DNA from: Antedon mediterranea
Taxonomy: Eukaryota > Animalia > Echinodermata
Length of the DNA stretch: 64,000 bases
Direction: 5' to 3'
Assembly: GCF_964355755.1 (NCBI RefSeq)
Contig: NC_092675.1
Span: 6,381,812-6,445,811 of the forward strand
Below are positions 1,240-64,000 of this stretch, piece after piece. The notes under the pieces are model-generated. The model ran no database searches. It was not told where the DNA came from and was given only the letters and a program-made list of their open reading frames with translations. The translations under genes and the position numbers were made by a program. Each line of letters starts with the position of its first letter. The first letter of the stretch is position 1.

Positions 1240-3140
1240 AGTACAATTAATAAGAATAAAGAATACTGTACACTTAACAATATACAACAAATAACATTAA
1301 TGTACGATGTAGTTTAACACTGTTCTCAACTATAGTCATTTTGGTATACTTGAGCACATTGATAAAGAATAGGATAAACTTAACAATATACAACAAATAA
1401 CATTAATGTACGATCCCGTTTAACACTGTTCTCAACTATAGTCATTTTGGTATACTTGAGCACAGTGATAAAGAATAGGATAAACTTAACAATATACAAC
1501 AACAATGTACGATCCCGTTTAACACTGTTCTCAACTATAGTCATTTTGGTATACTTGAGCACAGTGATAAAGAATAGGATAAACTTAACAATATACAACA
1601 AAAAACATTAATGTACGATCCAGTTTAACACTGTTCTCAACTATAGTCATTTTGGTATACTTGAGAACAGTTATAAAGAATAGGATAAACTTAACAATAT
1701 ACAACAAAAAACATTAATGTACGATCCCGATTAACACTGTTCTCAACTATAGTCATTTTGGTATACTTAAGCACAGTGATAAAGAATAGGATAAACTTAG
1801 CAATATACAACAAAAAACATTAATGTACGATCCAGTTTAACACTGTTCTCAACTATAGTCATTTTGGTATACTTGAGAACAGTGATAAAGAATAGGATAA
1901 ACTTAACAATATACAACAAAAAACATTAATGTACGATCCCGTTTAACACTGTTCTCAACTATAGTCATTTTGGTATACTTGAGCACAGTGATAAAGAATA
2001 GGATAAACTTAATAATATACAACAAATAACATTAATGTACGATCCAGTTTACCACTGTTCTCAACTATAGTCATTTTGGTATACTTGAGCACAGTGATAA
2101 AGAATAGGATAAACTTAAAAATATACAACAAAAAACATTAATGTACGATCCAGTTTAACACTGTTCTCAACTATAGTCATTTTGGTATACTTGAGCACAG
2201 TGATAAAGAATAGGATAAACTTAAAAATATACAACAAAAAACATTAATGTACGATCCAGTTTAACAATGTTCTCAACTATAGTTATTTTGGTATACTTGG
2301 AGAACAGTGATAAAGAATAGGATAAACTTAACAATATACAACAAAAAACATTAATGTACGATCCAGTTTAACTCTGTTCTCAACTATAGTCATTTTGGTA
2401 TACTTGAGAACAGTGATAAAGAATAGGATAAACTTAACAATATACAACAAAAAACATTAATGTACGATCCAGTTTAACACTGTTCTCAACTATAGTTATT
2501 TTGGTATACTTGAGAACAGTGATAAAGAATAGGATAAACTTAACAATATACAACAAAAAACATTAATGTACGATCCAGTTTAACTCTGTTCTCAACTATA
2601 GTCATTTTGGTATACTTGAGAACAGTGATAAAGAATAGGATAAACTTAACAATATACAACAAAAAACATTAATGTACGATCCAGTTTAACTCTGTTCTCA
2701 ACTATAGTCATTTTGGTATACTTGAGCACAGTGATAAAGAATAGGATAAACTTAACAATATACAACAAAAAACATTAATGTACGATCCCGTTTAACACTG
2801 TTCTCAACTACGGTCATTTTGGTATACTTGAGCACAGTGATAAAGAATAGGATAAACTTAATAATATACAACAAATAACATTAATGTACGATCCAGTTTA
2901 CCACTGTTCTCAACTATAGTCATTTTGGTATACTTGAGCACAGTGATAAAGAATAGGATAAACTTAACAATATACAACAAAAAACATTAATGTACGATCC
3001 CGTTTACCACTGTTCTCAACTATAGTCATTTTGGTATACTTGAGCACAATATACAACAAATAACATTAATGTACACGATTCTGTTTAACACTGTTCTCAA
3101 CTATAGTCATTTTCATATACTTGAGCACAGTGATAATATG
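1240..3140 (+). repeat. 106-bp satellite array, ~17-18 copies
   Basis: GATC landmarks at 1617, 1723, 1829 give a 106-bp period; very high copy identity. Confidence 0.97.
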
Positions 3141-3149
3141 AAAAACATA

Positions 3150-4290
3150 ATAACACTATAATATTTGTAGATGAATGACGCGGACACGTACATATGTTCA
3201 TAAGTAATTGATATAAATTGACTTTTAAAAGTGGAATTAACACAAATGATTGTAGATAAATATGACGTGAATTGCACGTACATAATGTTGATGAGTAGTA
3301 TATTTATATAAATCGACTTTGAAAAGTGAAATAACACTAATATTTGTAGATGAATATGACGTGGACACGTACATATGTTGAATGAGTATATTGATATAAA
3401 TCGACTTTTAAAAGTGAAATAACACTATTGATTGTAGATGAATATGACGTGGACAAGTACATTTATTGATGAGTATATTGATATAAATCGACTTTTAAAA
3501 GTGAAATAACACTATTAGTTGTACACTATTGATCATATATGAATATGACGTGAATTGCACGTACATGTGGATGAGTAGGCCTATATTGATATAATTGACT
3601 TCGAAAAGTGAAATAACACTGATTTGTAAATGAATATGACGTGGACAAGTACATTTATTGATGAGTATATTGATAAATCGACTTTTAAAAGTGAAATAAC
3701 ACTAATATTTATAGATGAATATGACGTGGACACGTACATATGTTGATGAGTATATTGATATAAATCGACTTTTAAAAGAGGAATTAACACTATTGATTGT
3801 AGACGTGAATTGCACGTACATATGTTGATGAGTGTATTGATATAAATCGACTAAACGTTAAATAACACTATCTTGTACAAGTACCCTCACTTGCACTGAT
3901 GAAGGGCTAGTGTTGCCCGAAAACTCTGCTAACTTTTCTGGCTGTCTTACTTTATCGTTTTGATTTAGCTTTTCGCTTCTTTTTTTGTATCTCCATTGAG
4001 ACCACAGCATTGTTATTATTTCAGTATTTTGCCTTTGGATTAATGACTGTAGATGATATGACATTTATGTTGATATAGTATATAGTTTTGTATATATAAT
4101 ATGCACACGTACATACGTTGATAGGTATTGATATAAATAGATTTTTAAAAGTACGGTAATAGACACTTTATTTGTAGATGAATACGACATGGACAAGTTG
4201 CAATAAATTCTATCGTTATATCGTATGTTGATGAGTATTGATATAAATCGACTTTTTTAAAGTGGAATAACACTAAAATGTATAGATGGA
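3150..4290. repeat. Degenerate ~87-bp tandem repeat
   Basis: aatcgacttt at 3311, 3399, 3486 and onward; interrupted by unique sequence at ~3870-4060. Confidence 0.85.
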
Positions 4291-4514
4291 TATGGCCTCA
4301 ACAAGTATTGTATTAAGCGGTACTGTATATTGATAGACTTCATACCTGTAATGTCAATGAAATCTGGCAACAAGAATTGTGTTTGATCCTCCTAATAGTA
4401 TTCTAATAATCTTGGTTTGTAAAGGAGGCATGAAAAATCTAAACGCATAGCCAGGGGAGGGGTTGGAGTTTCGAACAAACTTCCCTGTGCCCGTCGTACG
4501 GTTTTTGTGAACTT

Positions 4515-4625
4515 TTTAGTAGCGTGCAAACGCGACTCTACAGCTCACTATGTCGATCGGTCGGTCGGTAAACACCAACTCAAATTTGAGCACGCGACTG
4601 CAGCCATGTATAGGCCTATGGCCTG
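4515..4625 (+). mobile_element. Short interspersed element, HINE/DINE-1 (Helentron-associated)-like
   Basis: tttttagt..cgtgcaaacgcgactctacagctcactatgtc followed by (GGTC)n; second copy at 27284-27396. Family assignment is inference from architecture. Confidence 0.55.
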
Positions 4626-4739
4626 TTTATACTAGAAATCAGCAGTGAAAGTATATGTAAATAATATGTGTTAATATAGAATTAGTTTTTTTTATTTAAT
4701 AAATAGTATTAAAGTTGATCTTATTCTTTATCTGTGATT

Positions 4740-7296
4740 AATTATACTCAAATGACTATAGTTTAAAACAGTATTAAACGGCATCTTACATTAATGTTAT
4801 TTGCTGTTTATTCAAAGTTTATCCTATTCTTTATCACTGTGCTCAAATATACCAAAATGACTATAGCCTAGTTGAGAACAGTGTTAAACTGGATCGTACA
4901 TTAATGCTATTTGTTGTATATTATTAAGTTTATCCTATTCTTTATCACTGTGCTTAAGTATACCAAAATGACTATAGTTGAGAACAGTGTTAAACGGGAT
5001 CGTACATTAATGTTTTTTGTTGTATATTGTTAAGTTTATCCTATTCTTTATCACTGTGCTCAAGTATACCAAAATGACTATAGTCGAGAACAGTTTTAAA
5101 CTGGATCGTACATTAATGTACGTTTTTTGTTCGTATCCGGATATTCACCCCCTGGACATTTACCCCCCGGAAAACTACCCCCCGGACAACCACCACCTGG
5201 ACCACTACCCCCTTAGGACAACTACCCCTTTAGGACAACTACCCCCCGGACAAATACCCCCCGGACAACTACCCCCTTAGGACAACTACCCCCTTAGGAC
5301 GACTACCCCCTGGACAACTACCCCCCGGACAATTACCCCCTAGGAACAATTACCCCCCGGACAATTACCCCCCGGACAATTACCCCACCCCCGGGTAATT
5401 ACCCCGCGGACAACTACCTCTGACACAATACTCCCCGTAGGACAACTACTTCCTGGACAATACTCCGAGGGAAAATAATCTTTTAGGACAACTACCTCCG
5501 TAGGACAACTAACCCCTGGACAACTAACCCCTGGACAATTACCCCCGGACAATTACCCCCTAGGAACAATTACCCCTGAACAATTACCCCTTGACAATTA
5601 CCCCCGGAGAATTACACCCCCCCCCCCCCCCACTGTTCTCAAGTATACCAAAATGACTATAGTTGAGAACAGTGTTAAACTGGATCGTACATTAATGTTT
5701 TTTGTTGTATATTGTTAAGTTTATCCTATTCTTTATCACTGTTCTCAAGTATACCAAAATGACTATAGTTGAGAACAGTTGTAAACTGGATCGTACATTA
5801 ATGTTTTTTGTTGTATATTTTTAAGTTTATCCTATTCTTTATCACTGTGCTCAAGTATACCAAAATGACTATAGTTGAGAACAGTGTTAAACTGGATCGT
5901 ACATTAATGTTTTTTGTTGTATATTTTTAAGTTTAGGCCTATCCTATTCTTTATCACTGTGCTCAAGTATACCAAAATGACTATAGTCGAGAACAGTGTT
6001 AAACTGGATCGTACATTAATGTACGTTTTTTGTTGTATATTGTTAAGTTTATCCTATTCTTTATCACTGTTCTCAAGTATACCAAAATGACTATAGTTGA
6101 GAACAGTGTTAAACTGGATCGTACATTAATGTTTTTTGTTGTATATTGTTAAGTTTATCCTATTCTTTATCACTGTTCTCAAGTATACCAAAATGACTAT
6201 AGTTGAGAACAGTGGTAAACTGGATCGTACATTAATGTTATTTGTTGTATATTATTAAGTGTATCCTATTCTTTATCACTGTGCTCAAGTATACCAAAAT
6301 GACTATAGTCGAGAACAGTGTTAAACGGGATCGTACATTAATGCTATTTGTTGTATATTATTAAGTTTATCCTATTCTTTACCACTGTGCTCAAGTATAC
6401 CAAAATGACTATAGTCGAGAACAGTGTTAAACGGGATCATACCTTAATGCTATTTGTTGTATATTATTAAGTTTATCCTATTCTTTATCACTGTGCTTAA
6501 GTATACCAAAATGACTATAGTTGAGAACAGTGTTAAACTGGATCGTACATTAATGTTATTTGTTGTATATTATTAAGTTTATCCTATTCTTTATCACTGT
6601 GCTCAAGTATACCAAAATGACTATAGTTGAGAACAGTGTTAAACTGGATCGTACATTAATGCTATTTGTTGTATATTATTAAGTTTATCCTATTCTTTAT
6701 CACTGTTCTCAAGTATACCAAAATGACTATAGTTGAGAACAGTGTTAAACGGGATCGTACATTAATGTTTTTTGTTGTATATTGTTAAGTTTATCCTATT
6801 CTTTATCACTGTGCCCAAGTACACCAAAATGACTATAGTTGAGAACAGTGTTAAACGGGATCGTACATTAATGTTATATGTTGTATATTGTTAAGTTTAT
6901 CCTATTCTTTATCACTGTGCTCAAGTATACCAAAATGACTATAGTTGAGAACAGTGTTAAACTACATCGTACATTAATGTTATTTGTTGTATATTGTTAA
7001 GTTTATCATATTCTTTATCACTGTGCTCAAGTATACCAAAATGACTATAGTTGAGAACAGTGTTAAACGGGATCATACATTAATGTTATTTGTTGTATAA
7101 TGTTAAGTTTATCCTATTCTTTATCACTGTTCTCAAGTATACCAAAATGACTATAGTTGAGAACAGTGTTAAACTGGATCGTACATTAATGTTTTTTGTT
7201 GTATATTGTTAAGTTTATCCTATTCTTTATCACTGTGCTCAAGTATACCAAAATGACTATAGTTGAGAACAGTGTTAAACGGGATCGTACATTAAT
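4740..7296 (-). repeat. 106-bp satellite array in opposite orientation, ~19 copies, interrupted at 5131-5631
   Basis: Unit is the reverse complement of the 1240-3140 unit. Confidence 0.97.
5131..5631. repeat. GC-rich 16-18-bp minisatellite (GGACAACTACCCCC)n ending in poly-C, likely MITE-derived
   Basis: Roughly 25-30 copies of ggacaa(c/t)taccccc inserted in the AT-rich satellite. Confidence 0.85.
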
Positions 7297-7352
7297 TTTA
7301 TCCTTTGCTTTACTGTGCTTTGATTTGATAAGCAAGTTTGGTTGCCCCGCCC

Positions 7353-8309: not shown

Positions 8310-9735
8310 GCCCCGCCCCCATATGCTGCCTACTAAATTACGATTCCCTAGCTTTTCTATAAAAATTGAAGTACCCACAATGCACGTTATACGGAAGTCA
8401 TAGTCTTGTAAAATACAGACACAATAGTTTTTATCGTATTGTTTTCATTTAAATATCACTAAGATTGTCTTAAACTACAAACAACTAAAATTAGTGAAGG
8501 TATGCAAGTGTTTCTAAATATTTATTACTGGTAGTATTAATACAATTTGGATTATATCATTTTCCAGAAAGGTAGAAAAAACATAAAATAGTTGAGAATT
8601 CTCAACTAGCCAGGATGGTATAGGAAATATAGCTCTCATGACATCACTCATCCCCGTTCATGCGTGTTAGCCGGTGATTGGCCAGTAATTTTTTCCCCCC
8701 AATGATTGAGCAGCACAGCACAGCACAGCACGTACTGTTATAGGTTCTTTGCTTATACTTTATTTATATTTCTACCAAATAATTACTACATGATTTCTGG
8801 GTAGGCATTATTTGTTTAATGAGAAGAATACAATCTGTTTAAACTGACATTTTATTGAGTCAATTCACCAATTCTGTGTTGAAAATTTGAATAATAAATC
8901 TTTCTTAATCAGTTACAAAATGAGTTACAAATCATATTTATACAATAATGTAGTGTTATTTTCTTATTTCTAATAAATTCTAAAATTTCTGAAAACCATT
9001 ATAATTTTCACAATTTTACAATATTGATTCTTAAACCAAATTTGTTATTTTTCCTAATCATTCTGAAAATATACAGTAGGGCTACTGTCAACACACTCAA
9101 TTTTCTAAACTTTCTGAAAACAAACAACTGTCCCAAAAGAAACATATTAATTGTCCAATTTTTGAAAAATCCAAAATGTTAAAATTTTATGTAACAAATC
9201 TTAAAACTAAGTTATTTTTAAATTTTTTTGTAAACATTAAAAATTAATTGTATTTACTTTCTAATTAGTTACTTCCTGACTTTATTTTAGTTTATAAACT
9301 AGGCCTAGGGGAAGAGTGAAATTCTTGTCTGATAAACTTGTGACTTGATGAGAAGTTCATATTAAATATTTATACTGTACATTTAACTGTTATCAATAAC
9401 AAAATCAGTATATTAACAATAACATTTGTTAAAGTTTATAATTTGTTTACACAAGTGATTGTTTTTGGAGATCTGGAGAACGAACAAGTAATAATTGTTA
9501 TTAAGAGACTTTGTTGTTTGATCTTTCTTTTTGTACATGCATGTGGCATCACAAACTACATCAAAAAGAGATCTAGGCCTGGGTGGTGTGTGAGAGAGTA
9601 GATTATAATTACAGTATTTTGTTTTTGATAGACCTGAACAAGAAAGATGATAATATATTTTCTTACACAACAATTTTTTATGCCTAATCTTTAAAAAGAC
9701 TACTATTTTATTATCGATGTTGGCTCATTGTTTTG

Positions 9736-10927
9736 TTAAATAAGTTTAGATCGAATAGTTCCAATGGAATTAGCTTGTGTAGTAAGAGATCCATTTTCTT
9801 GAAAATAAAACAATCGCGATGAATTTTCTTGTTGTTGTTGTTTCAGTTGTTCTTTTATCAGCATTTCCTGGCCAAAAAGTTTTTTTTTTTTTATTAGCTT
9901 TCTTAAACTTATTCTGATGCACTTTTGGATGAAAAACATTAGCTTCGCTTCTACTACCAATCATTTTATGAGCTTCATTCAAAATGTTATCAGCATCAAA
10001 TAAGGCTGCACTAGGCTGAGGTGCTTTGACTAATGTGTCTATGAACAAAGATGTATTCTGCAGTTGCACTATTTTCTCTTCTTTAACTTTCTTTTCATTC
10101 AGACGTTCTACCGACATTTGTTGATTACGTTCATCCAGGTTATCCAACAAGATTTGTGCAGACTGGTTAATTTTCCAACAGAGGATCTTAGCATGTTGTT
10201 TTATTACTGTTTCACATTCCTTTATCGACTGATTCTGTTTTTCTGTATCCAGAATGTGCTGTTGTAATTCAGCCTTCATATCTTTTTCTTTAGTATTACA
10301 ATCGTATAACATGTTATCAGCTTCATATTTGAATCTTTCAAATGCTGCATCAAGCTCTTGTAAATTATGCCCTTTATGAGTGACAACAGTGCATTTCATA
10401 CAGACCGGTACAGAACAGGTGCCACAGTAAAACTCAACAGCAACACTTGTGTGTTTTGGACACATAACTGGCTTTGCTGAACTGCGTTCCTTTGCATCCA
10501 TGGACATATACTGGTTCAATGACATCACGGTATGATCTCGAAGAGCAGGGATCTTACAGTGATTTTCAGAACACTGGCTGCAAAGATATGCTGAACACTC
10601 CATACAGTGTGCAGCGGCTACTTTATTACACATAACACAACTTTTCACACTTGCTACATTTCCTTTCGTTTCTTTAGTGTACTCAAGTAGTTGATTGATG
10701 AAACAACTTGATGGTAGGCCACCCACACCATTACTTGGAACCTGGAATTCTTCACGGCACATCGGACATGATAACATTCCACCATTTCTCTCTACCCAAT
10801 CTTGAATACACTTCAAACAAAATGAATGCTGACAGCCTAGGGTCTTTGGAGTTTGAAATACCTCATGGCATATGGAACACAGAAGAACTTTTTCATTAAT
10901 ATCGTTGATTACTTTAGCAGTGGCCAT
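9736..10927 (-). CDS. TRIM56-like RING/B-box/B-box/coiled-coil E3 ligase, paralogue A (single coding exon; apparent +1 frameshift in A13 run at 9880-9892)
   Basis: [21 protein letters not shown]; B-box1 CVMC..CMEC..LCSQC..H..H; B-box2 CPKH..C..C..PVCMKC..HKGH; coiled coil. The conserved C-terminal motif lies in the 9736-9960 frame. 5'UTR acceptor TTTTTAG at 10970. Confidence 0.93.
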
Positions 10928-12317: not shown

Positions 12318-14567
12318 TGGTACATGATTCATTATTAGTAGATTCTTATCATTTGATTGGAGGACTGTGGGTCACATGATATTCATTAACTATTCCAATG
12401 AACTCTTGCGAGTATAATTATGCTATATTCTCGTTGAATTTTGTTATATGTGGTTCATTCTTGTTACACAATGATCAACGACCAGGCGTGAAACGAGGCT
12501 AGGTTGTGCACATTCAAAAAATCAACCTGTAGTGTGCGCCATCTATAATCCAAAATCATCAAAAAAGCATCAAAATTGAAGCGCTGCCTACTCGAACGGT
12601 TTAAGCTTTGCCTAGCCTCCAGATAAAAATATGAATGTTCCCTCTAGGAAGTGTAGACAATGGTTCTCGGAATGATAATGAGTCTGGTAAAAAGGCCTTA
12701 GAAGGACGTACTCCTATATATGCTTAATAACATTTTAAAGTATAGTGTTGTATTTTTTAAAGTCTTCAACATTATGATACTGTACTCGAGCTGTTCAACC
12801 AGTTTTCAGCCATTAAAAACAATTATTGTAGGAGGAGATAGGAAAATGCGAATTATCCTCGTATTATGGTATGCGTGTATTTTTCAAGATGGACATCCAT
12901 TAGACAGTGTAGGCCTATACCACGATCGGAAAACACCCCTATTTGGGGCAAATCGTTGAACCTAAATTCGTTTTAATTGTCAATTACTAATTATCGAACT
13001 CAATTTAATTAGTAAACAGGGTTACATCAGGTGGTTAAAATCAGTATCGAAAGTACGAACCAACTTTATATACCATCGAGTAAACATTCTAGAAATAACG
13101 CGCAATTTACCGAATTTTGCCCTTACGTAAATTTATATATAGATAATACAAGATTGTGTGTATTATAAATGTGGATGGGCGTTTATTAGATAGTTGGGTT
13201 GGGTGGGGGGATTATTATTCAAAGTGATGTTTTATTGGGGAGGTGTTGGGCATTTATTCAAATAAATACCATCCTAATAATTAATACATTATTTAATTTA
13301 AACATCTTTTGAAACTAACTTCTGCGACACAGTGGACCGTTTCGGCCCAAGAAGGAAGACATTTAATAGACGGCTTGCAACATGGGCAGACGTATCCCGG
13401 TCCTAACGGGACACAGATACCAAACCTTCACATGCGCGGTCCGATCCGAAAATAAACAAAAAACTAAAATGGCTATATAGCCACTAACGGCCAACTTAGT
13501 TAAAACCAGGAAGTTGCAAGGTGAACATGTGAACTTATCGTGAACCCGGAAATTACTTCGACCAGCGTACAATTGAAATTGAATTGAAAATATACTGATG
13601 AAATAAAAAATTTTGTTATAAAACCATTTATAATATCTTCCTAAGATAGAAATATGGAACAATAACGTAGTACTGAAAACTAATGGTATCAAATCTACGT
13701 TTCGCAGTACATCTAAGTTAGATAAGGTAGGTGTCCAAGGCGGAGATTTATACCGAAGTTTATTTATAAATACTAGTCTAGTAGAAACTACTAGACAGGA
13801 TATCCATATAGTGACTCTTATGTTTCTCACATTTCTATCATGTCTGACTACTATATCATCAGAGTTTGACATCTTACAGCATGATTTTCTAGGATATGAA
13901 ATTAAACAAGAAATATTTCTTACAAAAAACGCTGCTCGCTTATTGAAAAATATTTTTTATTTCAAATGTTTTTGAATGCGTCATTTTATTGTCACATAAT
14001 AGTTATTTTACCTGAAAAAATGTAATTTAAAGCAACAAATACTTAAATTGTCTGTCAGACAATGGTTTTGGGGTTTCTTTTCTTTTTTTATATGTGAATA
14101 AATATAATTTTTTTGTTACAGAAGTGAATACTCAATTTCTGTCACTTTAGTTAATTTTATTGCTAAGGTCAAATCTGGGGGTCACTTCATCACCCTAGAT
14201 ATTTCAATTGTGAAGTATCCTATTACAAACACAAACTTTAATGGACTGTTTCGATAATAATTCAATGAATATCTGACAGTGAATATACCAGAAATGCTTA
14301 TGGGATTTGTAATTTTAGCATGACATGTCCTAATAGACTCTTTCCCATACGTTTTTTGGGTCTACTGTAGCAGCTGGAATCAATAAATTATAGTGGAGTT
14401 TCCATTTTCACAAAACTGTCTGTCCTTAGAACTATAACTGCTGCTTGCTTTAGCTTCTGATTGAGTAGTCCTAATGGGACGTAGCGGGCTAGAGCAGCAG
14501 CGTGAAAATGTAGTCATACAGTAGCACATGAATGTGGAAAAGGGGCATAAGCAAGTTTAACTCAATA

Positions 14568-15867
14568 TTAATCGGATTGAATGGTACCAATAGACTGGGT
14601 AATTGAAGTGAGATTTTGGTTGTTATGAAAACTGAATAACACTACTGAACTATTAGCAACAGCAGGTGCAGGAACATCAGCTTCAGCAGGGTCAATCAAT
14701 GATGGATATTGCAAAGTTTGTTGTGGATATGCAATTGGAGCCTGATGTGGATATGCAATTTGAGCCTGATGTGGATATGTGACTGGAGCTTGATGTGGAT
14801 ATGTGACTGGAGCCTGATGTTGATTTATGTTTGGAACCAGTTGATTTTGTTTTTTTGCAATCATTTTGTTAGCCTCATCCAAGATTTTACTGGCATCAAA
14901 TAAGGCTGCACTAGGCTGAGGTGCTTTGACTAACGTGTCAATGAACAATGATGTATTCTGCAGTTGCTTTATTTTCTCTTCTTTAAATTTTTTTTCTTTC
15001 TGCTGCTCATCTAAACATTTTTTAGATTTTGTGTCCAGCTCATTCAGCAATGTCCGTTCAGCCTTATCAATATTTTGACGGAGAATCTGAGCATACCGTT
15101 TTACTTCGTCTGCACATACCTTTATTGATTTCTTTTGTTTCTCAATATTTCCAATATGTATTTTTAATTCAGCCTTCATTTCCTTCTCTTCAGTGGTACA
15201 ATCATTCAATATTTTATTAGCTTCATCTTTAAATCTTTTAAATGCTGTATCAAGCTCTTGTAAATCATGTCCCTTATGAGAAACAACGGTGCATTTCATA
15301 CAAACAGGTTGGTTGCAGGTGTTACAATAAAACTCAACAGAAACACTTGTGTGTTTTGGACACATAACAGGCTTAGCGGCTGTACGTTCTGCTGCATCCA
15401 TGGCCATATACTGGTTTAATGACATCACTTTATGGTCACGACAAGGAAGAATTTTGCAATGATTCTCACCACACTGCTTACAAAGATATGCTGAACACTC
15501 CATACAGTGTGCAGTAGCTGCTTTATTACACATAACACAACTTTTCACACTTGCTACATTTTCTTTTGTTTCTTTAGTGTACTCAAGTAGTTGGTTGATG
15601 AAATAACTTGATGGTAGGCCATCCACACCATTACTTGGAACCTGGAATTCTTGACGGCACATTGGGCATGTTAACTTACCACCACTTTTTTCCACCCAAG
15701 TTTGAATGCACTTCAAGCAAAACGAGTGCTGACAGCCTAGGGTCTTAGGAGTTTGAAATACTTCATGGCATATGGAACACAGAAGAACTTTTTCACTAAT
15801 GTCATTGATCACTTCAGCAGATATGGATTTTTTTTCGTTAGCTTCTTCCAATGCTAGACAGGAAACA
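14568..15867 (-). CDS. TRIM56-like coding exon, paralogue B (no own ATG before the RING)
   Basis: Intact RING, two B-boxes and coiled coil. The ORF track start is TTG; the position equivalent to the paralogue ATG is ATA. Acceptor TTACTTTTTAG|TGTTTCCTGT is identical to that of paralogue A. Confidence 0.93.
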
Positions 15868-18800
15868 CTAAAAAGTAAATATTAATATGATGTTACCTTA
15901 TAAAGTAGTCTTGGTATTGTACATGCAAAACAAGGGCATTAACAATTACATTCTTCCCTGGTTACACTAAATCAACAAAATACTGTGGCAATAATGAACA
16001 AAACTTATCTTTTGTATAAATTACTCCCCTTTCATTTACTGTCCCGATGTGAAAGCTCACTAATACAAATTGAACTCACTACATGTAACCTCTAGACATT
16101 ATCTATATTAAAACAAAATCTATACCCCTTTCACATCGCTTACACAAACACAATAACACAATGAATAACAACAGTGTTTTGTAAGGTGTTTATCCCGGTG
16201 TGTAAACTTTGGAACTTTGCTAAGCCATGTGAAAGGGGAATAAGAAAGGCTATGTTACAGTACCTCTATCTCTAGGGCAGGCTAACTGTAACCTTGACTT
16301 GAGGGTCTTAGTAAGTGACTAGACGTACCTCTAATTTAGGAATATATGTTACAGGTATATAATACCTAATTAGTGCGCATAAATTATAATAAGTAAACAA
16401 GTGTACATACACAGAACTGCTAGCAGCTGATTTGCTGGTACTTTTAGTAGTTTTTTGGTAGGTTTCATTAATATCAGTACATATTTGCCTGGGCCATGAT
16501 CCATCATTGTTTTTTTGTTCTACAATCAAAACCTGATAAAAACAAATGTTCTTGTTAAGACGTACGTACAAAACATAAATCATTAATAAGTATTAAATAA
16601 TAACATTAAAAAAAGTGTAATTGAAACTACCATATTGACAAAATAGGTTGGTAGTGGTCAACCCACCAATACATTGGTGGTAGCACTGGTAAAGCTGTGG
16701 CCTCTCGCTCTCTATGGCCACCCTTGACTTGTTCTCTTGCCCCGTAACTTTGTTTTTGTGACTTTTTGTACTGTTTGGTGAACTGTCTGGGGTTTACTAA
16801 AATAGGAAGGTTCTATGGAAGATCAGAGTATTAATTAATTGTTTCCAAAGGGAGAATAGAAGGACTTTGGCCAATATCACAGAATTGTGTAACAACACAG
16901 GAAAAATTGACACTTTTTATATTGCTATTGATAATTATTTTCCCACCAAAGTAGTCGGTCACTAATTGACACACGGCAAACGGCTATGGCCATTTCCATT
17001 TACACTGGCTAAAAAACTGTGAGATGAACTCGAGTCATGCTCATTTACATTACATCGATCACCTCGGTGCTGTTAATCAAAACAACAGTACTTCGAGCGT
17101 CCATTGTAGAAAACTTTATTGATGGTTTATTGGTTGGTTTAAACACTTGAACATATCAATGATCTTGTATCAAAATATTAGAAGTGAATTTACACGCAAT
17201 TTAGTTAATTTATTAATGTAGTCCTACAGCATTAAATTTTCTTTGTGGATATATTTACATATTATCAATAAATTATTGTTAATCAATTTTTCTTTTAAAT
17301 TAAAATTTTCAGTCAGACGCACAACTTCAGATGTTGACCAAGTTGCAACATGTTCTGTTTATTGTTAGAGAAACATTGCACACAAAAATGGTAGAAAGAT
17401 ATTGCAATAAAAAAAAAAGATGATCCTTGAAAATCACAAGGGTTCAATGAATAATAACCAATTTTGATTTGCTGCATGATTGGATTAGTAAATATGTTGA
17501 ATCCACAAACCTGTCCTTGGTACAGTCCTGCATCTTGTACTGTGTTATCTTTCTTTGCAAGTTGTTCATATGTATCGCTCATGTATGTATTCCCTATTCG
17601 GGCCTCACTCTTGTCTGGTATATCAAAAGTCTCCCTCATAACATTCTCAATTGTTTCTATAATTTAAACAAGTTTACAAGAAACTAAATTAATAGATTAA
17701 TAGAAAAATAACACCACTGCACTAATTACCATAAGTTCTCCCTTAAAGGGGTGTTTAGAAAACTCAGATCTAAGATATATCAGACTTTTCTAGATCTAGA
17801 AAACTCAGATATCTGACTTTTCTAGATCTAGAAAACTCAGATATCAATATCTGAGTTTTCTAGTTCCAGAATGGAACTAGAAACTCAGATCATCATATGA
17901 TTGGTTGGTAGGTCATTTGGATCATTCCATTATTAATCAGAAGGTAGGTCATTTGAAATACTAGAGTATTATTAAAACTGATTACTGTGTACGTTTTCTT
18001 ACTAATATTGTAGAAGCGGCCTACGGCTTAAATCATAAAGAAAATACAGTGCATGTTACCGTTAAAATGTAGGCTTAAAAATTAGGTATGGAGGTACCTC
18101 CATGGTACGAGTTGGTGTGGGTACGAGTTAGTTGAGGTACGAGTTAGCCAAGTTGGGAATAGGTACGAGTTATTTTGGGTACGAGTTGACCACTTCTAGC
18201 CTAGTAGGGCCAGGTACTCTTCGCGATACTTCGCGATAGCACCCACACGTTGAGCCTTGAATTGAGTTTGCTTAGCTAGGCTAGGCCTAAATGCTAAGCA
18301 TACATTTTAAAAGGTGTATACTGTATTTCTTTATGATTTAAGTCGTAGGCTGCTACTACAAGTTACAATAATTATTATTATTAGTAAGAAAACGTATAAT
18401 ACTGTAGTATTTCAAACAAGCTACCCTCTATTAATAATGGAATGATCCTTTTGATGATCTGGGTTTTCTAGTTCCATTTTGAACTAGAAAACTCAGATAT
18501 ATCTGAGATCTGAGATCACCCCCCTTAAAGTGATCTTTCACATATAAGTGTACTTCTGAATTACCCTCTGTTCAAGTTAATTACAGTATTACATTTTAGG
18601 ACGACCCTCATACTGTACATGGCAAAATCTGATTTGGGAGTTGGTTGTTTTTTAGCTCAACAAAGTCCTCTATTTATCATCGAGACCAGCAGCAGATTAT
18701 GACTGCACATGGTCGTACAATGGCTTAAAAATCATAAATATGAGCTTTTTGATTATATTATTCTGCAGAAAACACATCATCAAAATTCAGTAATCTTCGT

Positions 18801-21800
18801 AATAAGCCGGGTAAAAATGTGGAACACCAGGACTACTTAAACAAAATAACTAAATTTACTGTACCAATAGTATCTCCTTTGCTAAACTTCTTGGTGACAA
18901 AATCAGTCTGACCCTGATTGCTAATCTTACAGAGCTTTAACTCCATCAAGTACACTTCTACCTTGCAATGCTTCACAATCATGCCATGTAAAACCACCTT
19001 ACGAGATATCGGCTCCTGCCCTTCTATAATACCATACCAGAGTACAAATTTTTTCCATGCAGTGGTTGGTACCAATACATAATCCAAGTCATCTATAAGG
19101 TTCTCTTTCAAAACAGAGTCTCCATTCACCACTAAACATACAGTAATATAATGTATGATTTTTATTAAAGTTTTCCACAGTATAGAATATGTTGCATGCC
19201 ATGCCTAAATTAAGCAGCAGTTAGTTTTGTGTTGGACTACTGTAAAACATTGGTAAAAGTGCAGAAAATCAGGGACGTTTCGCCTCAGGTTTTCAGGACC
19301 TGACACTGGTGGAATGAAACATTCTAATGTTAGGCTGAAACATCCCAATTTTAGGTCAAACCAAGTGATCATCAACTATGTTGTGGGTTTTATCAAAAGA
19401 TGTTTGAACTAAACAATTATTTATATTATTTATTTCCATCCACGTAGGCTGTGCCGTTTCGTGGAGGTTCACCAATTCAGCTTGGCCTACGCTTAGTTAA
19501 GGCAGACCAAACAAGAGAACCTATTTCCTGTTATTATCATACTTTAATTTAATAATCAATAATACTGATCCAGCCAGCACATCTTCTACCCTACAGTTGG
19601 TATTTATTTATTTGCATTCTAAAACATGATTGAATGGCATTAAAACAGCAGAATAAATTAAAATAATATTACAAATCCAGTATGTCTATGTTTTTTTATA
19701 CACTGATAAATTGATAAGCAGGTTAATTATAAATTTATGTCAATGCAAAGCATTATCTTGTTTGGACTTTTGGGGAGGCTTCTTTTCGAGATGGGCTTCT
19801 TTTCGAGATGGGCTTCTTTTCGAGATTACGTTTGCCAATTAAAGAGGGGGCCTTCTCTTCAAAATGTTTGTGAATTGCTACTATAATAATATAATTATTT
19901 AATATATATTATTATATATTTTGATATTCACATAGTCTCGAAAAGAAGCCCATACTACTGTATCTTGAAAAGAAGCCCTGTTGGCTTGAGATTACTTATG
20001 CAAACCAAAGGGGTGGCTTCTTTTCAAGGTTTTACGGTATGGCATCCAGTTTGTAGTTTAGCTAGCTCAGCCTCATCAGTCAAATCCAGGACCACTGATC
20101 TGTTGTAACAACCTTAGGCCTACTGTGTTATATAAACGTACCTGTTAAGAGCTGAGAGTTATTTACTGGTCCTGGGAAAACATTACTGTGTCCCACATTA
20201 TTCATGTCCCACCTATCATATCCAACATATTTTTTCCATTGCTTAAACCATCTACTGTCCACTAGGTACCTTTAAGAATAACACATATCGTAACGTTTGT
20301 TACATAACTTCAGCAAAATAAAACTACATAATAAGATAAAAAAAAAGTATAAAGGGAAGTTAATTACGTTTAAAAAACCCCATAAAACATCATATGATAT
20401 GGTACTGGTTACAAGAAGCACATCCTAAATTTATAAAAATTAACAACAACAAATCTTAGATAGAGTATATTTAACTTACCGGTGGACAAATTTTAATGTG
20501 CTTATTTATTTTTTTTTAAAACTAATTTAACTATTTATACATATTTCTATATTCTTTTTATCAAATATTGTAAAATACTACTTTTTAGCCTTTTGGCTGC
20601 CGTTTTATTATACATTTATAAATATCCATGTAATCAAGAAAAGAGAAATGAGACGGCAAAACTAGTTCTAGACTTAGCTAGCCTGTAAAAACTTGAGAGA
20701 GTAGAGATAGTTTCACGTTATTTACCAAAAACAAATGTAATGATACTACTAGTTTGTAATGTTTTTCAGAAGATTAACTCTTTTTCAAGTAAATCAGGGT
20801 TTTCCCCTTATTACATACATGGTATCTTGTACAAACTTACATGGTTCCTGTTCCAATGAAGATTTACAGTAAGCGGCACCCTCAGGACAGGGAAATGTGG
20901 CTGCTTACGGGAGGTGGCCGCTTACAGGAGGTGACTGCTTACGGGAGGTTCTGCCGATAGAGGGCCAAAATATATATCATATTTTTCGCCATTCTTAACG
21001 CAACAGGCCTCTAAATTCTCTAGCCAATTGTATTTTATTGTTTATGGTTTAGTATTATTTATGATTTTCAGACACATTTTAAAAGCTTGTGTGCATGAAA
21101 ATGGTCGGTCAAAATCTGTGTAGTTTTCTCATCTCATCTAAAAAAACATAGGAATGTTCTTCACAGAAATGTTTTTAACACTGCAGAGTCATTTATTGTC
21201 AAAACCCCGAAAACAAAACAACACTGGGCCTACTAAAAATGTCAGGTGTAGGCCTACTAGTATTTATCTATTTATTTACTTTTAAGTAATGTAATATATG
21301 CAAGAATTATTAAAAATAGTTAAATAATTCAAACACCTAATAAATCAAACAAGAAGATTTTGCACACAAGCTTAAAAAAAAACAAACTAATAAGTACAAC
21401 AATAAAGTATCAAAATTGTATTTTTTTGGTCAAAAGTCTACACAAATTTTTCAGATGGCCGCTTACAGGGAGGTAATTTACCATACAAAAAATCTAATTC
21501 TTATCTTAGTAAAAAGGGTGGCTGCGGCTGTCCTAGCCTGTATTACTACACTAGGCTAGGGCCTATAAGACTAAGTAGGCCTAGGCCTAGTAAGTAGTAT
21601 AGGGCCATAGGCCTAAATATAAGGGGTAGGAGGAGGCCTAGCCTATACTAATAAGCCTAGCTAGCTAGGCCTGTGGGCTAGCCTACTAGCCCTCTAGGTA
21701 AGCCCTCCTACTAGCTAGTAGGCCTACCTATGCCTAGCTAGTAGGTTGATGATGATATGGAATTAAGTAAACCTTATTTACCACGTATCACCTTTCCTTA

Positions 21801-21885
21801 GTGGCGTTTTAATGGAATCAAATATTTCCTCCTTCTGCTCGTTTAATTTCGGCATAGGCCTAGGCCTACCACCTCCCGCCATCAT
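14568..21885 (-). CDS. Predicted chimeric gene: USP15/USP4-type DUSP-UBL fused to TRIM RING/B-box/coiled-coil (6 exons, 688 aa)
   Basis: Exons 21885-21782, 20269-20142, 19131-18865, 17656-17511, 16532-16411, 15867-14568; all GT-AG, phases compatible, 2067 nt = 689 codons including stop. Confidence 0.78.
16123..16240. mobile_element. Small TIR element (CCCCTTTCACAT...ATGTGAAAGGGG), Harbinger-like
   Basis: Inverted termini visible; related element at 53691-54186. Confidence 0.55.
16411..21885 (-). CDS. USP15: USP15/USP4-family N-terminal exons (DUSP + UBL1); no catalytic-domain exons seen in window
   Basis: [78 protein letters not shown] match the remembered USP15/USP4 N-terminus. Confidence 0.92.
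17743..18528. mobile_element. TTAA-flanked MITE (Kolobok-like) with TCTAGAAAACTCAGAT subterminal repeats and nested GGTACGAGTT repeats
   Basis: ttaaaggggtg ... caccccccttaa termini; internal inverted repeats. Confidence 0.6.
19770..20039. mobile_element. Partial MITE with GGGCTTCTTTTCGAGAT repeats, ending TACGGTA (pogo/Tigger-like)
   Basis: Repeated motif in both orientations; related fragment at ~47935-48022. Confidence 0.55.
20865..21530. mobile_element. Tc1/mariner (Tigger-like) MITE with GGCCGCTTAC repeats
   Basis: Reverse-complement homologue at 23856-24389 ending gaggttcaactgta. Confidence 0.65.
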
Positions 21886-30537: not shown

Positions 30538-31863
30538 TTAATTTAATGGAGTGGATTTAATAGTACCAATAGAATGGCTAATTGCAGTGAGATTTCCACT
30601 GAAGCTAAATAACACTGCTGAACTATTAGCAACAGGAGCTTGAGCAGGGATAGGTTGAGCATTAGTACCTTGAGCATAATATAAACGTTGAGCATTATAA
30701 GCTTGAGCAATATATGCTTGAGCATGAGGATCTGGAGCAGGAATATGTTGAGCATTATAAGCTTGAGAAAAAATATTAGTAGAAGGAATATAAGGAGAAG
30801 GAGGAAGAAAAGGAGAAGGAGGAATAATAGGAGGAGGAAGAGCTGAAAACATTCCATTATTACATTTATTATGGACAGCCTCTTCAATTTCAATCACAAT
30901 CATTTTGTTAGCCTCATCCAAGATTTTACTTGCATCAAATAAGGCTGCACTAGGTTGAGGTGCTTTGACTAATGTGTCAATGAACAATGATGTATTCTGC
31001 AGTTGCTTTATTTTCTCTTCTTTAACTTTTTTTTCTTTCTGTCGCTCATCTAAACATTTTTTAGTTTGTCTGTCCAGATCATTCAGCAATGCCTTTTCAG
31101 CCTTATCAATATTTTGACGGAGAATCTGAGCATACCTTTTCACTTCTTTTGCACATACATCTATTGATGTCTTCTGTTTCTCTGTATCACTATTATGCTG
31201 TTTCAATTCAGCCTTCATTTCCTTCTCTTTAGTGTTACAATCATTCAGGGTTTTATTAGCTTCATCTTTAAATCTTTGAAAAGCTGCATCAAGTTCTTGT
31301 AAATCATGTCCCTTATGAGAAACAACGGTGCATTTCATACAAACAGGTTGGTTGCAGGTGCTACAATAAAATGCAACAGCATCACTTAAGTGTTTTGGAC
31401 ACATAACTGGCTTTGCTGCAGTACGTTCTGTCGCATCCATGGCCATATACTTGTCTAATGACATCACGGTATGATCTCGACAAGGAGGAATTTTGCAGTG
31501 ATTTTCGCCACACTGCTTACAAAGAAATGTAGAACACTCCATACAGTGTGCAGTAGCTGTTTTATTACACATAACACAACTTTTTGCACTTGCTACATTT
31601 TCTTTCGTTTCTTTAGTGTACTCAAGTAGTTGGTTGATGAAATAACTTGATGGTAGGCCACCCACACCATTACTTGGAACCTGGAACTGTTGACGGCACA
31701 TCGGACATGACAGTTTACCACCACTTTTCTTTACCCAAGTTTGAATGCACTTCAAGCAAAATGAATGCTGACAGCCAAGGGTTTTAGGATTTTGAAATAC
31801 CTCATGGCATATGGAACACAGGAGAACTTTTTCGTTGATATCATCGATTATTTTAGCAGCCAT
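30538..31863 (-). CDS. TRIM56-like RING/B-box/coiled-coil E3 ligase, paralogue C (441 aa)
   Basis: Intact RBCC closely similar to paralogue B; Pro/Ala/Gln-rich tail; acceptor TTTCTTGTATAG at 31892 in the 5'UTR. Confidence 0.95.
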   Translation of the reverse strand: MAAKIIDDINEKVLLCSICHEVFQNPKTLGCQHSFCLKCIQTWVKKSGGKLSCPMCRQQFQVPSNGVGGLPSSYFINQLLEYTKETKENVASAKSCVMCNKTATAHCMECSTFLCKQCGENHCKIPPCRDHTVMSLDKYMAMDATERTAAKPVMCPKHLSDAVAFYCSTCNQPVCMKCTVVSHKGHDLQELDAAFQRFKDEANKTLNDCNTKEKEMKAELKQHNSDTEKQKTSIDVCAKEVKRYAQILRQNIDKAEKALLNDLDRQTKKCLDERQKEKKVKEEKIKQLQNTSLFIDTLVKAPQPSAALFDASKILDEANKMIVIEIEEAVHNKCNNGMFSALPPPIIPPSPFLPPSPYIPSTNIFSQAYNAQHIPAPDPHAQAYIAQAYNAQRLYYAQGTNAQPIPAQAPVANSSAVLFSFSGNLTAISHSIGTIKSTPLN

Positions 31864-38200: not shown

Positions 38201-41200
38201 AAGACTCAAACGCCTGTATTCTTAAACCGGACTTTAGTCCTAGTTCGAAGTTCGACTTGAAAAAGTCGTAGTTCGAGCTATTACTTCAAATTCGATTCAT
38301 AAACGAAGTAGTCGAAGTTTGCAGTTCGACTTAATGAAGTCGAGCTTTTAGTCGAGTTGCACACGTCTGGGTAACAAAGACTATACATTGACCAATGACA
38401 AGAGAGTATTTGAGGAGCAGACGACATTTTGCGCATTGATATCACTTTCCATTTTCTTACAAAACTTTTTACACATCAGGACTATATACATGAAAAATAA
38501 TTTTAAACGTTAATTATTAGAACAAGATCAGTATTAATTTAACAGTGAAGTACTTTTGATTAACAACAAACAAAATCTTAAAAATATATTTAGGAACCAT
38601 GGCGGTACGGTAACTTTCATATTTTCTGGGCCTTGCATGATTGCGACAAACCACGCACTTCATAGCGTAACAAGAAAGCGCTAGGCCCAGAGCCATATAT
38701 ATAAAGAGTTACGACATTGGATTATAGTCACGTGATATGCAGATCAATTTGTGTCAAACTTGTCTCCGTTAATGCATGTAAAGTATAGGAGCAAGAAAAT
38801 ACTTTAAACTTTTTCTTATATTTAAAAAAATTTAATTGCACATTTTACGGTGAAATATCGATGTGCACAGCGTACAGAAGTACTTGTGCCAAAGAATATT
38901 GCGCGCGCGTGCGCTACAGTAGTACATTATAAAGTTCGATTGATTGATTTTGGAACAAAACATCCCATAACTACGTCCTATTAATAACAATTATGTAATA
39001 TTTTCAATTCATAATGCATGCTTTGATGACTAAATAAAATAATAAAGTGTCGTGGATATATTTGTTAATATACAGAAAAGGGTATGAACAATATTTAAAT
39101 AATAAAGGCAAATTATTACAAATGAAATGATGAACGAGTCTCTGAAAGTTTGTGTCAAAAACACACAGAGAGCCATATACTGTATAATAAGAGGGGTGAA
39201 TTTGTGTGTTTTTTGTATTGGTTCATGCTTTGATGTATCCTGACTTGCATGTAGGCCCTGGCATTTATTCTTTTGTTATTATAGACACAATATATATATG
39301 TTACCAAATTAATACCATTAATAAAATTAATTACTAAAAACAAAAACGGAATATAAGCGTTATTTCATAGACAAAAAAATCTAAAAATAATGCATGAACT
39401 ACACGAAAACGCTATAAAATAGACGCTTGGGCCCTCAGCGTGCGAATTCTTTAACACAAAAATGGCTTCTAATTTTCAATGTCGTAACTCTTTATATATA
39501 TGGCTCTGGCTAGGCCCCCTAAACATTCCATCGCGAGGTGAATTTCCGCATCTCCCATTGTCGCTATGGTGTGACATAGTTCAAGTCGGACTTGCGCGAA
39601 GAAAATAATGTAATTTGTATACGGTTATAAATAAAGATGATTTTCATTATTATAACTTATACCAATGTATATTTAATTAAGCTAATATAAAAATAGATAT
39701 TTCATTCTTCAATATCTGGCCAATATAACAACTCAATGACTATTACGTTTTTCATAAACATCGTTTAAAAACCATTTAGTTGACCATTTAGCCTGCCCTC
39801 CAGGACTAAATAAATCGATCAAAATCCGTCTCGATTTAGTCGAGGTTGGCCTGATTTAGTCGGCGATTTAGTTGAAGTTCGGTTTATGAATTAAAATGAG
39901 GTCATTTTTAAAGTTTTAGCTCGAACTAAGACTAAAGTCCGGTTTTAGAATACGGGCGAAAGTCTTGAAGTCGAGGACTGAAGCACCTGAATGAGTAGTA
40001 CTAAGTGTGTTAAAACCAACTCGGACAGCATCGTGTGACTTGCCCAACGTCGGTGCTGTCTGAGTTGAATTCAGATGAGACTTAAGATAGGGTCGGGCGT
40101 AGTTTTAGGTTATCGGGAGAAGTTTAAACGTGTTTAGTTTTCTCCCAACATTGTACGACCTGTCTAAGTTGGCATTTAGTGTGAGTAGACACTTCACTGA
40201 TTGTCTTGTTTCATTGTATTTTTAAATAGAAATGACAGACTGTACAGCCAGAAAAACACAGAGATTATTCAGCCTAGTAATTTATACTATGAACAATTTG
40301 AATTGCAAGAACTTGAAAAACGGGTAAGAATGATCATAGAGATATTGTTCACTATAATATCTCTATGGAATGATCCAAACAATTTTCGGAAAATACACAA
40401 GTTCAAATTCAAATATTCTTTATTCATCCTCAATCATGAAAATATACAACAACAATATATGAGAACATAAAAAAGATGAAAAGGAAACACATAAAAACTC
40501 AAAAGAGCTTGATTAGTTGTGTCCCCCTATGTCCCTAAAAACTAGCCTAAAAAACTAAAACATAAATAATAAAAAAAGCTAAATCCTGCAACAAGTATTA
40601 TTTTTAAAATTATTTGTAAAATGATAATAAATGTTCTTTAAACAATGATTTAAATATATATATTGATTTGGTACTTTGTAGTTCGTAATTCAAGTCATTC
40701 CACAATTTGGGTCCCACACATGACACAGTAAAACTAGTAGAAGTACGATTACGTTTTCTGAGTCTCATTTTGTCTTTAGATCTTGTATTATAATTATGGT
40801 AAGAACCATTTTTAATAAAGAGCGATGAAAAACGCACGTCCTGATTAGTAGTAACATTATACATGAAAAGCCCAATTTGGTACTTATTGATATCCGCAAT
40901 TTTAAGAAGTTTAAATTTATAGAAACATTCAGTCATTGAATCATTAAACTTTGACCATGTTATAGCTCGTAATGCCCTTTTCTGGAGTTTAAATAACTCA
41001 TCTAAATAACTTGGAAATGTGCTACACCATATTATGTTGCAATAATTTAATACTGGTTCAATGAGTGATTTGTATATTGTCCAGAGAGCATAGGTTGGTA
41101 AAAAATGTCTTACTTTATATAGTATGCCTACATATCGAGATATTTTCCTAGCTGTAACATTGATGTGGTTCTTATATGTGAGAAATTCATCAATATGTAC

Positions 41201-63742: not shown

Positions 63743-64000
63743 CTTAAAAAACAATAATATTGCTTGGGTCCAATACAATCAACTTTGGCAAAGACAATTT
63801 TCTTTATTTCTTTCGCTAATCGAAGGTTTGCCCCATACTAATAAATACATTAAATACAAACAATAACACTGAAATAGCAAAAGCAATACATATCAATGAA
63901 ATTAGCATAATAAAAACACAAAAAAAACCCCATTAAGACTTGACCGTCTAGTCTAAACTAAATATCGAGAGACACATTTCTAATAGACACGATAGTTTCC

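Follow-up and report, generated by a model that had tools for sequence, protein, structure and literature searches.

Host domains that are targeted by pathogens have been fused repeatedly to plant NLR immune scaffolds, where these integrated decoys diverge from their parent. In animals, TRIMCyp is the capture of a host domain on the RING-B-box-coiled coil (RBCC) scaffold, which occurred more than once independently: TRIM5-cyclophilin A, which is antiviral, in primates, and RanBD/CypA in zebrafish ftr52, as described in the main text of a TRIM survey (PMC3137616). According to the main text of another, TRIM proteins of Branchiostoma floridae have come, through recent recombination, to carry a ubiquitin protease module other than the catalytic one, namely MATH domains resembling those found in MATH-UCH deubiquitinases (PMC3503706). 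DUSP is mentioned in the main text of neither survey (PMC3137616, PMC3503706), and neither DUSP nor USP occurs in that of the latter.

The deubiquitinases USP4, USP15 and USP11 possess an N-terminal DUSP-UBL, which forms a single binding unit (PMC3522295). SART3 and BRAP are partners of this unit (PMC4914101, PMC3522295), and residue F127 of USP4 is needed for SART3 binding (PMC4914101). USP15 stabilises, or is engaged by, the viral proteins HPV E6, HBx and HIV Nef/Gag, the DUSP-UBL not being specified as the site in the cited part of the source (PMC8962386).

Structure of the fusion gene

The window analysed is a stretch of 64,000 nucleotides from contig NC_092675.1 of the crinoid Antedon mediterranea. 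It contains a six-exon gene on the minus strand, in which a USP15-derived DUSP-UBL is joined to a TRIM termed paralogue B, and two unfused paralogues, A and C. The features are given below with their basis; X1, X2 and X4 are contigs presented further on.

21782..21885, minus strand: exon 1, with the ATG, the USP15-derived N-terminus and the DUSP start (frame and parent comparison)
20142..20269, minus strand: exon 2, DUSP (frame and parent comparison)
18865..19131, minus strand: exon 3, DUSP end, β-hairpin GMIVKH (F to I at residue 129) and UBL start (X1 piece 18865-19100)
17511..17656, minus strand: exon 4, UBL, with W to G at residue 188 (frame, alignment and contig X1)
16411..16532, minus strand: exon 5, UBL end and Ser/Thr-rich linker, phase-2 donor GTATGT (frame and contigs)
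15868..16410, minus strand: fusion intron of 543 nt between the USP15-derived and TRIM-derived parts (crossed by DNA contigs X2 and X4)
14568..15867, minus strand: exon 6, intronless TRIM paralogue B, from recruited linker to stop (frame, Pfam and alignment)
30538..31863, minus strand: TRIM paralogue A, 441 residues, unfused, closest relative of B (84% identity over 330 residues)
9770..10927, minus strand: TRIM paralogue C, 385 residues, unfused (P0003)

All introns are of the GT-AG type, with phases 2, 1, 1, 0 and 2. The joined exons translate into 688 residues with the terminal stop as the only one, and the product is identical to the RefSeq entry XP_071952506.1 (P0001), which is a gene model. 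The original prediction had read a stop-free USP15/USP4-type DUSP-UBL from five GT-AG exons, spliced from a phase-2 donor at 16411 to an acceptor at 15867 to give 688 residues; the translation, the Pfam matches (DUSP and Ubiquitin_3) and the RefSeq model all agree with it.

Of 46 listed AG dinucleotides in the interval 16410-15760, the long frame is kept by two, at 15867 and at 15795, the latter having a weak pyrimidine tract and giving 664 residues. The AG that follows 15867, at 15853, causes a frameshift and a product of 260 residues. In the DNA alignment, it is this AG that coincides with acceptor-like AGs of paralogues A and C. The linker had been regarded as a former 5'UTR; judging from this alignment, the TRIM exon seems to open with 14 nt that were once intron, and the proposal is amended for this segment. 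Exon 6 comprises, in order, 43 nt of recruited linker, an ATA codon (15824-15822), a C3HC4 RING, two B-boxes, a coiled coil, a tail of PHQAP repeats and the stop.

The DUSP-UBL and TRIM halves

The DUSP (PF06337, residues 32-124) and the UBL (Ubiquitin_3, PF14836, residues 142-230) are both recognized by Pfam above the cut-off. The DUSP-UBL is 79% identical to that of the parent XP_071961505.1, the similarity stopping just past the UBL, and it is placed beside Antedon USP15 in the tree. An intact USP15 was found on another contig. The USP Cys/His-box catalytic domain is absent from the chimera protein by Pfam and from the window by tblastn, where Antedon USP15 (939 residues) is matched over residues 1-224 only, in keeping with the earlier reading, which had recognised no catalytic exon there.

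Residue 129, the counterpart of USP4 F127, is an isoleucine, and the SART3-binding hairpin G[LM]FVKH is therefore not matched. Ten of the 107 invariant DUSP-UBL columns are altered, including W188G, and the branch of the chimera measures 0.22-0.25 versus 0.01 for the parent. Decay would also fit this long branch and these altered columns.

The C3HC4 RING (PF00097, residues 286-326) has all eight zinc ligands, as read from the sequence: C286, C289, C301, H303, C306, C309, C323 and C326. As it begins at residue 286, behind the DUSP-UBL, the RBCC is not N-terminal. One B-box is matched by PF00643 at 422-460, and B-box 1 was read from its Cys/His pattern, PF22586 matching weakly in paralogues A and C. 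A long helix spans residues 482-570 in a low-confidence AlphaFold model (3-sequence alignment, mean pLDDT 36). The TRIM56/TRIM45-like invertebrate RBCC proteins (A, C, P0002 and P0004) share the RING-B1-B2-coiled coil arrangement with 72-84% identity, whereas the chimera has an N-terminal extension of about 270 residues before the RING. The search for homologues of the TRIM half alone was insensitive, returning 6 of 2714 candidates.

At the DNA level, the ATA of B occupies the same alignment column as the ATG of A and C, as had been noticed. Residue 325, the first internal methionine of B, lies inside the RING's final zinc pair; the claim that an intact RING depends on the 16411-15867 splice holds, since the part of B ahead of the RING end is free of ATG codons. 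The dN/dS of B versus A is 0.26 over 325 codons (0.14 in the RING), a value in which selection before and after the fusion is inseparable, and it suggests that the TRIM half is under constraint.

Assembly and splicing

Contigs and reads were placed over 13000-19800, a range with exons 1-2 and their junctions outside. The DNA contigs X2 (15807-17806, one difference) and X4 (15766-17769) are unbroken, and each crosses the join, which answers the concern of a mis-join at 15.9-16.4 kb. Contig X1, from another study, is RNA-like. Its mean depth in the fusion intron is 0.7, and 0 in the bins 15951-16404. The X1 pieces (236 + 146 + 122 + 115 = 619 nt) match an exon 3-4-5-TRIM splice to the base. The depth is 18.4 both at 17619, where a distance of 38 to the end gives the exon 4 start, and at 15819, where a distance of 49 gives the acceptor at 15867; the same splice reproduces the bin depths of 9.59 and 3.79. 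From these depths and distances, and with X1 taken by guess as RNA, we infer that this splicing is supported, and the 16411-15867 junction that had been called for finds its backing in this fit.

All three coding differences listed in single-copy stretches are synonymous, which likewise suggests constraint, two of the listed alleles lying in exons 3-4. Eight differences at 15375-15762, seven of them synonymous, were disregarded, as they probably come from paralogue reads.

Recurrence in other animals

A DUSP-UBL accompanied by RING/B-box was found in 22 of the 154 proteins screened (15 C-terminal, 7 N-terminal), with a query that contained both halves and thus favoured TRIM partners in the ranking. 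None of the 22 has a USP catalytic core. In Anneissia the DUSP-UBL is N-terminal to a different TRIM; in Ptychodera and two Branchiostoma species it is C-terminal on different TRIMs. The 16 further fusions are gene predictions, with a Pfam RING in 12. Such fusions bear misleading database names: TRIM45-like, MID2, PML-like, USP15 or ubiquitinyl hydrolase.

Several fusion modules cluster with the USP4/15 of their own lineage. On a 22-row tree, a single clade for nine fusions was rejected (p-AU 3e-48) and seven state changes were counted; the nine fusion-type rows are eight of the 22 fusions plus P0177, and the long-branch fusions, omitted here, were placed only in a quick tree with unsure positions. 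P0177 consists of a coiled coil and DUSP-UBL only. Several animal lineages appear to have acquired a DUSP-UBL/TRIM join independently.

A common origin for the crinoid chimeras of Antedon and Anneissia was rejected (p-AU 0.005). Their TRIM halves share only 31% identity, against 55-57% between Antedon B and the unfused TRIMs of Anneissia. Three substitution sites are common to both chimeras versus 8 that group by species; the three common sites leave room for an older crinoid origin with gene conversion.

Among 34 proteins scanned, the orphan DUSP-UBL has as other partners WWE-PARP, WWE, PARP14-type RRM, BTB (2), Sina zinc finger, PRY-SPRY, kinase and L1 ORF1. In Lymnaea, the DUSP-UBL occurs with a C-terminal RING, which we take to be IAP-like. 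Over 24 fusions, the SART3 hairpin is changed at F in 35%, V in 52% and H in 42%, compared with 25% for the mean conserved column, which may merely be a surface loop effect. The Anneissia, Ptychodera and Branchiostoma fusions retain the Phe.

The ESM Atlas, in clusters of at least 50 members, gave generic TRIM clusters below 0.9 and no DUSP+TRIM cluster. By title and abstract start, no DUSP-UBL/TRIM fusion was found in the literature; supplements and subscription papers were outside this scope, and domain tables of genome papers could hold it. The architecture, of which the original prediction knew no description, is not unique, being annotated in at least five named species and having a close published precedent in the amphioxus TRIM-MATH, but the fusion itself was absent from this literature.

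Proposed function and alternatives

The chimera resembles TRIMCyp in that a domain was copied from a retained parent onto an RBCC scaffold and in that AU tests indicate independent recurrence. It differs by the captured domain, by its position N-terminal to the RING and by the presence of introns, which suggests a copy at the DNA level rather than retrotransposition. An antiviral role of the chimera is only putative. Amphioxus TRIM-MATH involves another deubiquitinase family and domain, reported in one species (PMC3503706, main text). The DUSP-UBL of USP4/USP15/USP11 is shared, without the catalytic domain and with the SART3-binding Phe changed. As in plant NLR decoys, domain-copy fusion is repeated, with an animal E3 as scaffold and only putative pathogen targeting. 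Captures of this kind being known, what seems new is the recurrence of the DUSP-UBL/TRIM fusion.

USP15 exons 1-5 were presumably duplicated at the DNA level into the TRIM cluster, where an upstream in-frame AG would have been taken as acceptor and the TRIM ATG lost. TRIM proteins dimerise by their coiled coil and assemble by B-box, and the chimera would do likewise. The linker of about 55 residues would keep the DUSP-UBL beside the RING and a bound ligand within reach of E2~Ub; ubiquitination of the ligand would lead to degradation or signalling. At even chances, the chimera is a bait-guided ubiquitin ligase that catches USP15-docking proteins, most likely from pathogens, and ubiquitinates instead of protecting them.

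An endogenous antagonist is a rather unlikely alternative. The chimera would bind USP15's own clients in the host (SART3, BRAP-type coiled coils, other E3s), which it would ubiquitinate or sequester in opposition to the parent deubiquitinase. The known binding of SART3 and BRAP by the DUSP-UBL (PMC4914101, PMC3522295), the 97 of 107 conserved columns kept and the GMFVKH or GLFVKH retained in several other fusions speak for this, but F129I alters the SART3-critical residue in Antedon, and gains that recur lineage by lineage on expanded TRIM families would suit a changing external target better than a conserved host circuit. Equally improbable is that TRIM B took the promoter and start codon of USP15, with the DUSP-UBL as a drifting passenger or stabilising tag. 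This would account for the N-terminal DUSP-UBL, the loss of B's own ATG, a branch about 20 times that of the parent, and W188G with other invariant-column changes. Yet the five exons are still stop-free and in frame at 79% identity, and the two listed exon 3-4 alleles are synonymous. The C-terminus is the usual TRIM slot for a substrate domain and brings no promoter; 15 C-terminal fusions, and a catalytic core in none of 22, are left unexplained.

It is very hard to believe that the gene is an artefact, either mis-assembled or modelled by merging a USP15 fragment with the adjoining TRIM. X1 is only guessed to be RNA, its splice is deduced, and RefSeq offers a gene model, but the DNA contigs cross the join, the fusion intron is missing from X1, which fits the splice to the base, and B has no ATG until the RING end. 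The parent USP15 lies on a separate contig in Antedon, Anneissia and Ptychodera.

The bait-guided ligase gains from the repeated independent origins and the varied partner types. Of the three functions first proposed, with no choice made among them, ubiquitination of, or competition for, SART3-type partners is weakened here by the Ile at the F127 equivalent, and the decoy or bait is favoured. More tentatively, TRIM-DUSP-UBL proteins could constitute a hitherto undescribed class of integrated-decoy E3 in animals, which evolved repeatedly and traps pathogen proteins recruiting or disabling USP15. As part of that same tentative reading, the class would extend over echinoderms, hemichordates, amphioxus and proteins grouping with fish and frog USP4/15, and over PARP, BTB and other RING scaffolds in addition to TRIM, the DUSP-UBL being a long-standing pathogen target.

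Implications

With the origin proposed above, the chimera clearly illustrates how a new gene can come about when exons are duplicated, an acceptor shifts and a start codon is lost. As natural 'inverted DUB' ligases, such proteins may be of use in finding or degrading USP15 interactors. The lesson of TRIMCyp is that a domain captured repeatedly by TRIMs can mark a host factor on which viruses depend. By this logic, repeated capture of the DUSP-UBL, in the screened set always without the catalytic core, points to the DUSP-UBL of USP4/USP15, and the prediction is that something foreign would dock on its surface in many animals.

Gene structure and product

The chimera is a predicted minus-strand gene in which five USP15-derived exons precede a TRIM exon (TRIM B). 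All introns of the translated gene model are GT-AG.

Exons of the chimera
21885-21782, minus, exon 1
20269-20142, minus, exon 2
19131-18865, minus, exon 3
17656-17511, minus, exon 4
16532-16411, minus, exon 5
15867-14568, minus, exon 6 (TRIM exon)

The six joined exons encode 688 residues with a single stop, at the terminus, bearing out the original prediction of a DUSP-UBL-RING-B-box chimera. When the TRIM exon by itself served as query for homologs, the matches included a 688-residue protein identical in sequence to the chimera, P0001 (RefSeq XP_071952506.1, an 'uncharacterized protein' of Antedon mediterranea), in which Pfam recognizes DUSP, Ubiquitin_3, RING, and B-box.

Pfam domains of the chimera
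Residues 32-124, DUSP
Residues 142-230, UBL
Residues 286-326, RING
Residues 422-460, B-box

Reading of the sequence finds 8/8 RING ligands. The RING, B-boxes, and coiled coil are those of a TRIM; the position of the RING is not. As predicted, DNA alignment places ATA in the TRIM exon at the ATG site of its unfused neighbours, paralogues A (30538-31863) and C (9770-10927), and the earliest Met within this exon is residue 325, at the RING end. The expected lack of a USP catalytic exon in the window also held, only residues 1-224 of the 939-residue parent USP15 aligning there. The chimera is not a deubiquitinase.

Assembly and splicing

Five sequencing runs contain the stretch, none of them on record as RNA, and four were aligned to 13000-19800, with exons 1-2 outside. 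A mis-join at 15.9-16.4 kb, between exon 5 and the TRIM exon, is excluded because single contigs from two DNA-like runs of the same sample cross the join (X2, 15807-17806; X4, 15766-17769).

Run X1 comes from a different sample and study and is tentatively regarded as RNA. Its mean depth is 0.7 in one and 0 in the other of the two bins inside the fusion intron (15868-16410). Its record 6 (619 nt, depth 18.4) matches 18865-19100 over letters 1-236. Two further positions share this depth: 17619, where a piece ends 38 letters away (17656 being the start of exon 4), and 15819, where the distance to a piece end is 49 letters; acceptor 15867 predicts 49 letters and the alternative AG at 15853 predicts 35. 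The record length fits the splice (236+146+122+115 = 619), and the bin means of 9.59 and 3.79 are reproduced if 4 nt (GTTT) may be assigned to either intron 4 or exon 5. From this arithmetic of lengths and depths we infer exon 3-4-5-TRIM splicing, in agreement with the predicted 16411-15867 junction. Where the sequence is single-copy, 3/3 of the coding differences listed are synonymous; 8 more, located in the TRIM exon, probably stem from paralogue reads and were disregarded. The gene is real and very likely expressed, and an artefact is highly improbable.

Origin of the chimera

A search for a separate full-length USP15 had been proposed, and the intact gene is present on a different Antedon contig (P0007, XP_071961505.1). 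The DUSP-UBL of the chimera is 79% identical to this parent, has a branch of 0.22-0.25 versus 0.01, and is changed at 10 of the 107 columns invariant across 10 USPs. The sister of TRIM B is the unfused paralogue A, with 84% identity and a dN/dS of 0.26 (0.14 in the RING). The AG at 15853 aligns with an acceptor-like AG of A and C, and its use in the chimera would cause a frameshift; the AG that is used lies 14 nt upstream and is also present in C. USP15 exons 1-5 with their introns appear to have been copied into the TRIM cluster and spliced in frame to the TRIM through the upstream AG, the TRIM ATG being presumably lost afterwards.

Recurrence and independent origins

The architecture was not known to the original prediction from any description. 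No paper on TRIM-DUSP-UBL was found in searches of the open-access literature, and Antedon is not alone. Among the best 120 of 1376 matches to residues 1-235, Anneissia japonica XP_033114245.1 (three RefSeq isoforms) bears a RING, and Lymnaea CAL1543085.1 (P0016) has two DUSP-UBLs followed by a C-terminal RING, which looks IAP-like. With a crinoid-chimera profile (best 120 of 1366), RBCC proteins with a C-terminal DUSP-UBL appear in Branchiostoma belcheri (two entries), B. lanceolatum (three members), and Ptychodera flava.

Screening covered 154 proteins, 7 of them named and 147 newly added from the top 150 of a representatives search. It yielded 22 with DUSP-UBL and RING/B-box (15 C-terminal, 7 N-terminal), 15 with DUSP-UBL and catalytic core, 51 with DUSP-UBL only, and 66 with none; a catalytic core occurs in 0/22 of the fusions. 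The 16 unnamed fusions, unverified predictions from a query that favoured TRIM partners, have a Pfam RING (12) or B-box with or without coiled coil (4), and some of their DUSP-UBLs are partial. Other partners of orphan DUSP-UBLs are WWE-PARP, WWE, PARP14-type RRM, BTB (2), Sina, PRY-SPRY, kinase, and L1 ORF1. The DUSP-UBL of the WWE-PARP protein P0174 clusters with crinoid USPs (100 SH-aLRT), suggesting one more crinoid recruitment. P0166, a tandem RBCC-DUSP(partial)-RBCC-DUSP-UBL, probably reflects a prediction that joined two neighbouring TRIM-DUSP genes, a hint of expansion at that locus. Anneissia XP_033095827.1 (P0008), USP4-like without the Cys-box region, is probably an incomplete model.

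A DUSP-UBL tree of 22 rows (9 fusions, no Branchiostoma USP) pairs the fusions of Antedon (92/73), Anneissia (93/87), and Ptychodera (94/87) with the USP of their own species, and P0167 with Pelobates USP4 (100/99). P0176, P0166, and P0177 cluster with a fish USP15 (86/87), whereas the Branchiostoma pair stands in a group of its own. A single clade of the nine fusions is rejected (p-AU 3e-48; 7 changes). The TRIM halves of the two crinoid fusions are 31% identical; Antedon B is 55-57% identical to unfused Anneissia TRIMs. Since three sites unite the two crinoid chimeras, they may yet have an older origin, with gene conversion and partner exchange, against which eight sites unite sequences by species and a clade of both chimeras is rejected (p-AU 0.005).

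Other features of the window

1256-7301, 106-bp satellite, two inverted arrays (17 and 15.7 copies) around a 15-bp repeat
40610-43620, minus, LINE element, endonuclease and reverse transcriptase, two frames
46094-47092 and 55684-56841, plus, two long low-complexity ORFs, internal repeats, no Pfam match
48090-49468, 126-bp tandem repeat, 10.9 copies at 98%, one frame open for 492 codons
61235-61594 and 63517-63837, minus, exon-like pieces, weak SAD/SRA match, presumably a UHRF1-type gene

In paralogue C (P0003), the frame changes after a poly-A run: the family's conserved C-terminal TRIM tail (9724-9900, minus) is encoded out of frame beyond it, and P0003 ends in a different sequence; the frameshift is either genuine or a homopolymer error.

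Binding surface and proposed mechanism

BRAP binding is reported to need both DUSP and UBL, a single binding unit (PMC3522295), and the hairpin GLFVKH to contact SART3, F127A abolishing binding (PMC4914101). The hairpin is GMIVKH in the Antedon chimera; its Phe is retained in the Anneissia, Ptychodera, and Branchiostoma fusions. In 24 fusions F is changed in 35%, V in 52%, and H in 42%, where 103 conserved columns average 25%; for a surface loop this excess is modest. HPV E6, HBx, and HIV Nef/Gag are described as stabilised by or engaging USP15, with the DUSP-UBL not mapped as the site, and TRIM25 as protected by USP15 (review, PMC8962386).

There is an even chance that the chimera is a bait-guided E3, in which the DUSP-UBL would capture proteins docking on USP15 and the adjacent RING would ubiquitinate them. 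The dimer geometry and downstream outcome of such an E3 would be those of general TRIM biology. It is unlikely that the chimera instead antagonizes host clients of USP15, and equally doubtful that TRIM B merely captured a promoter, with the DUSP-UBL as a drifting passenger. A bait-guided E3 would resemble TRIMCyp in its way of working. Primates evolved TRIMCyp more than once, and zebrafish ftr52 is a further such origin (PMC3137616); amphioxus TRIMs with MATH domains like those of MATH-UCH deubiquitinases are the nearest precedent (PMC3503706). The main texts of both reports do not mention DUSP, and the word 'fusion' has 0 occurrences in a paper on USP4/15/11 evolution (PMC4624187). Tentatively, TRIM-DUSP-UBL proteins may form an undescribed, repeatedly evolved animal class of predicted integrated-decoy E3 ligases trapping pathogen proteins. 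The notable outcome is the repeated and independent capture of one module, the DUSP-UBL.
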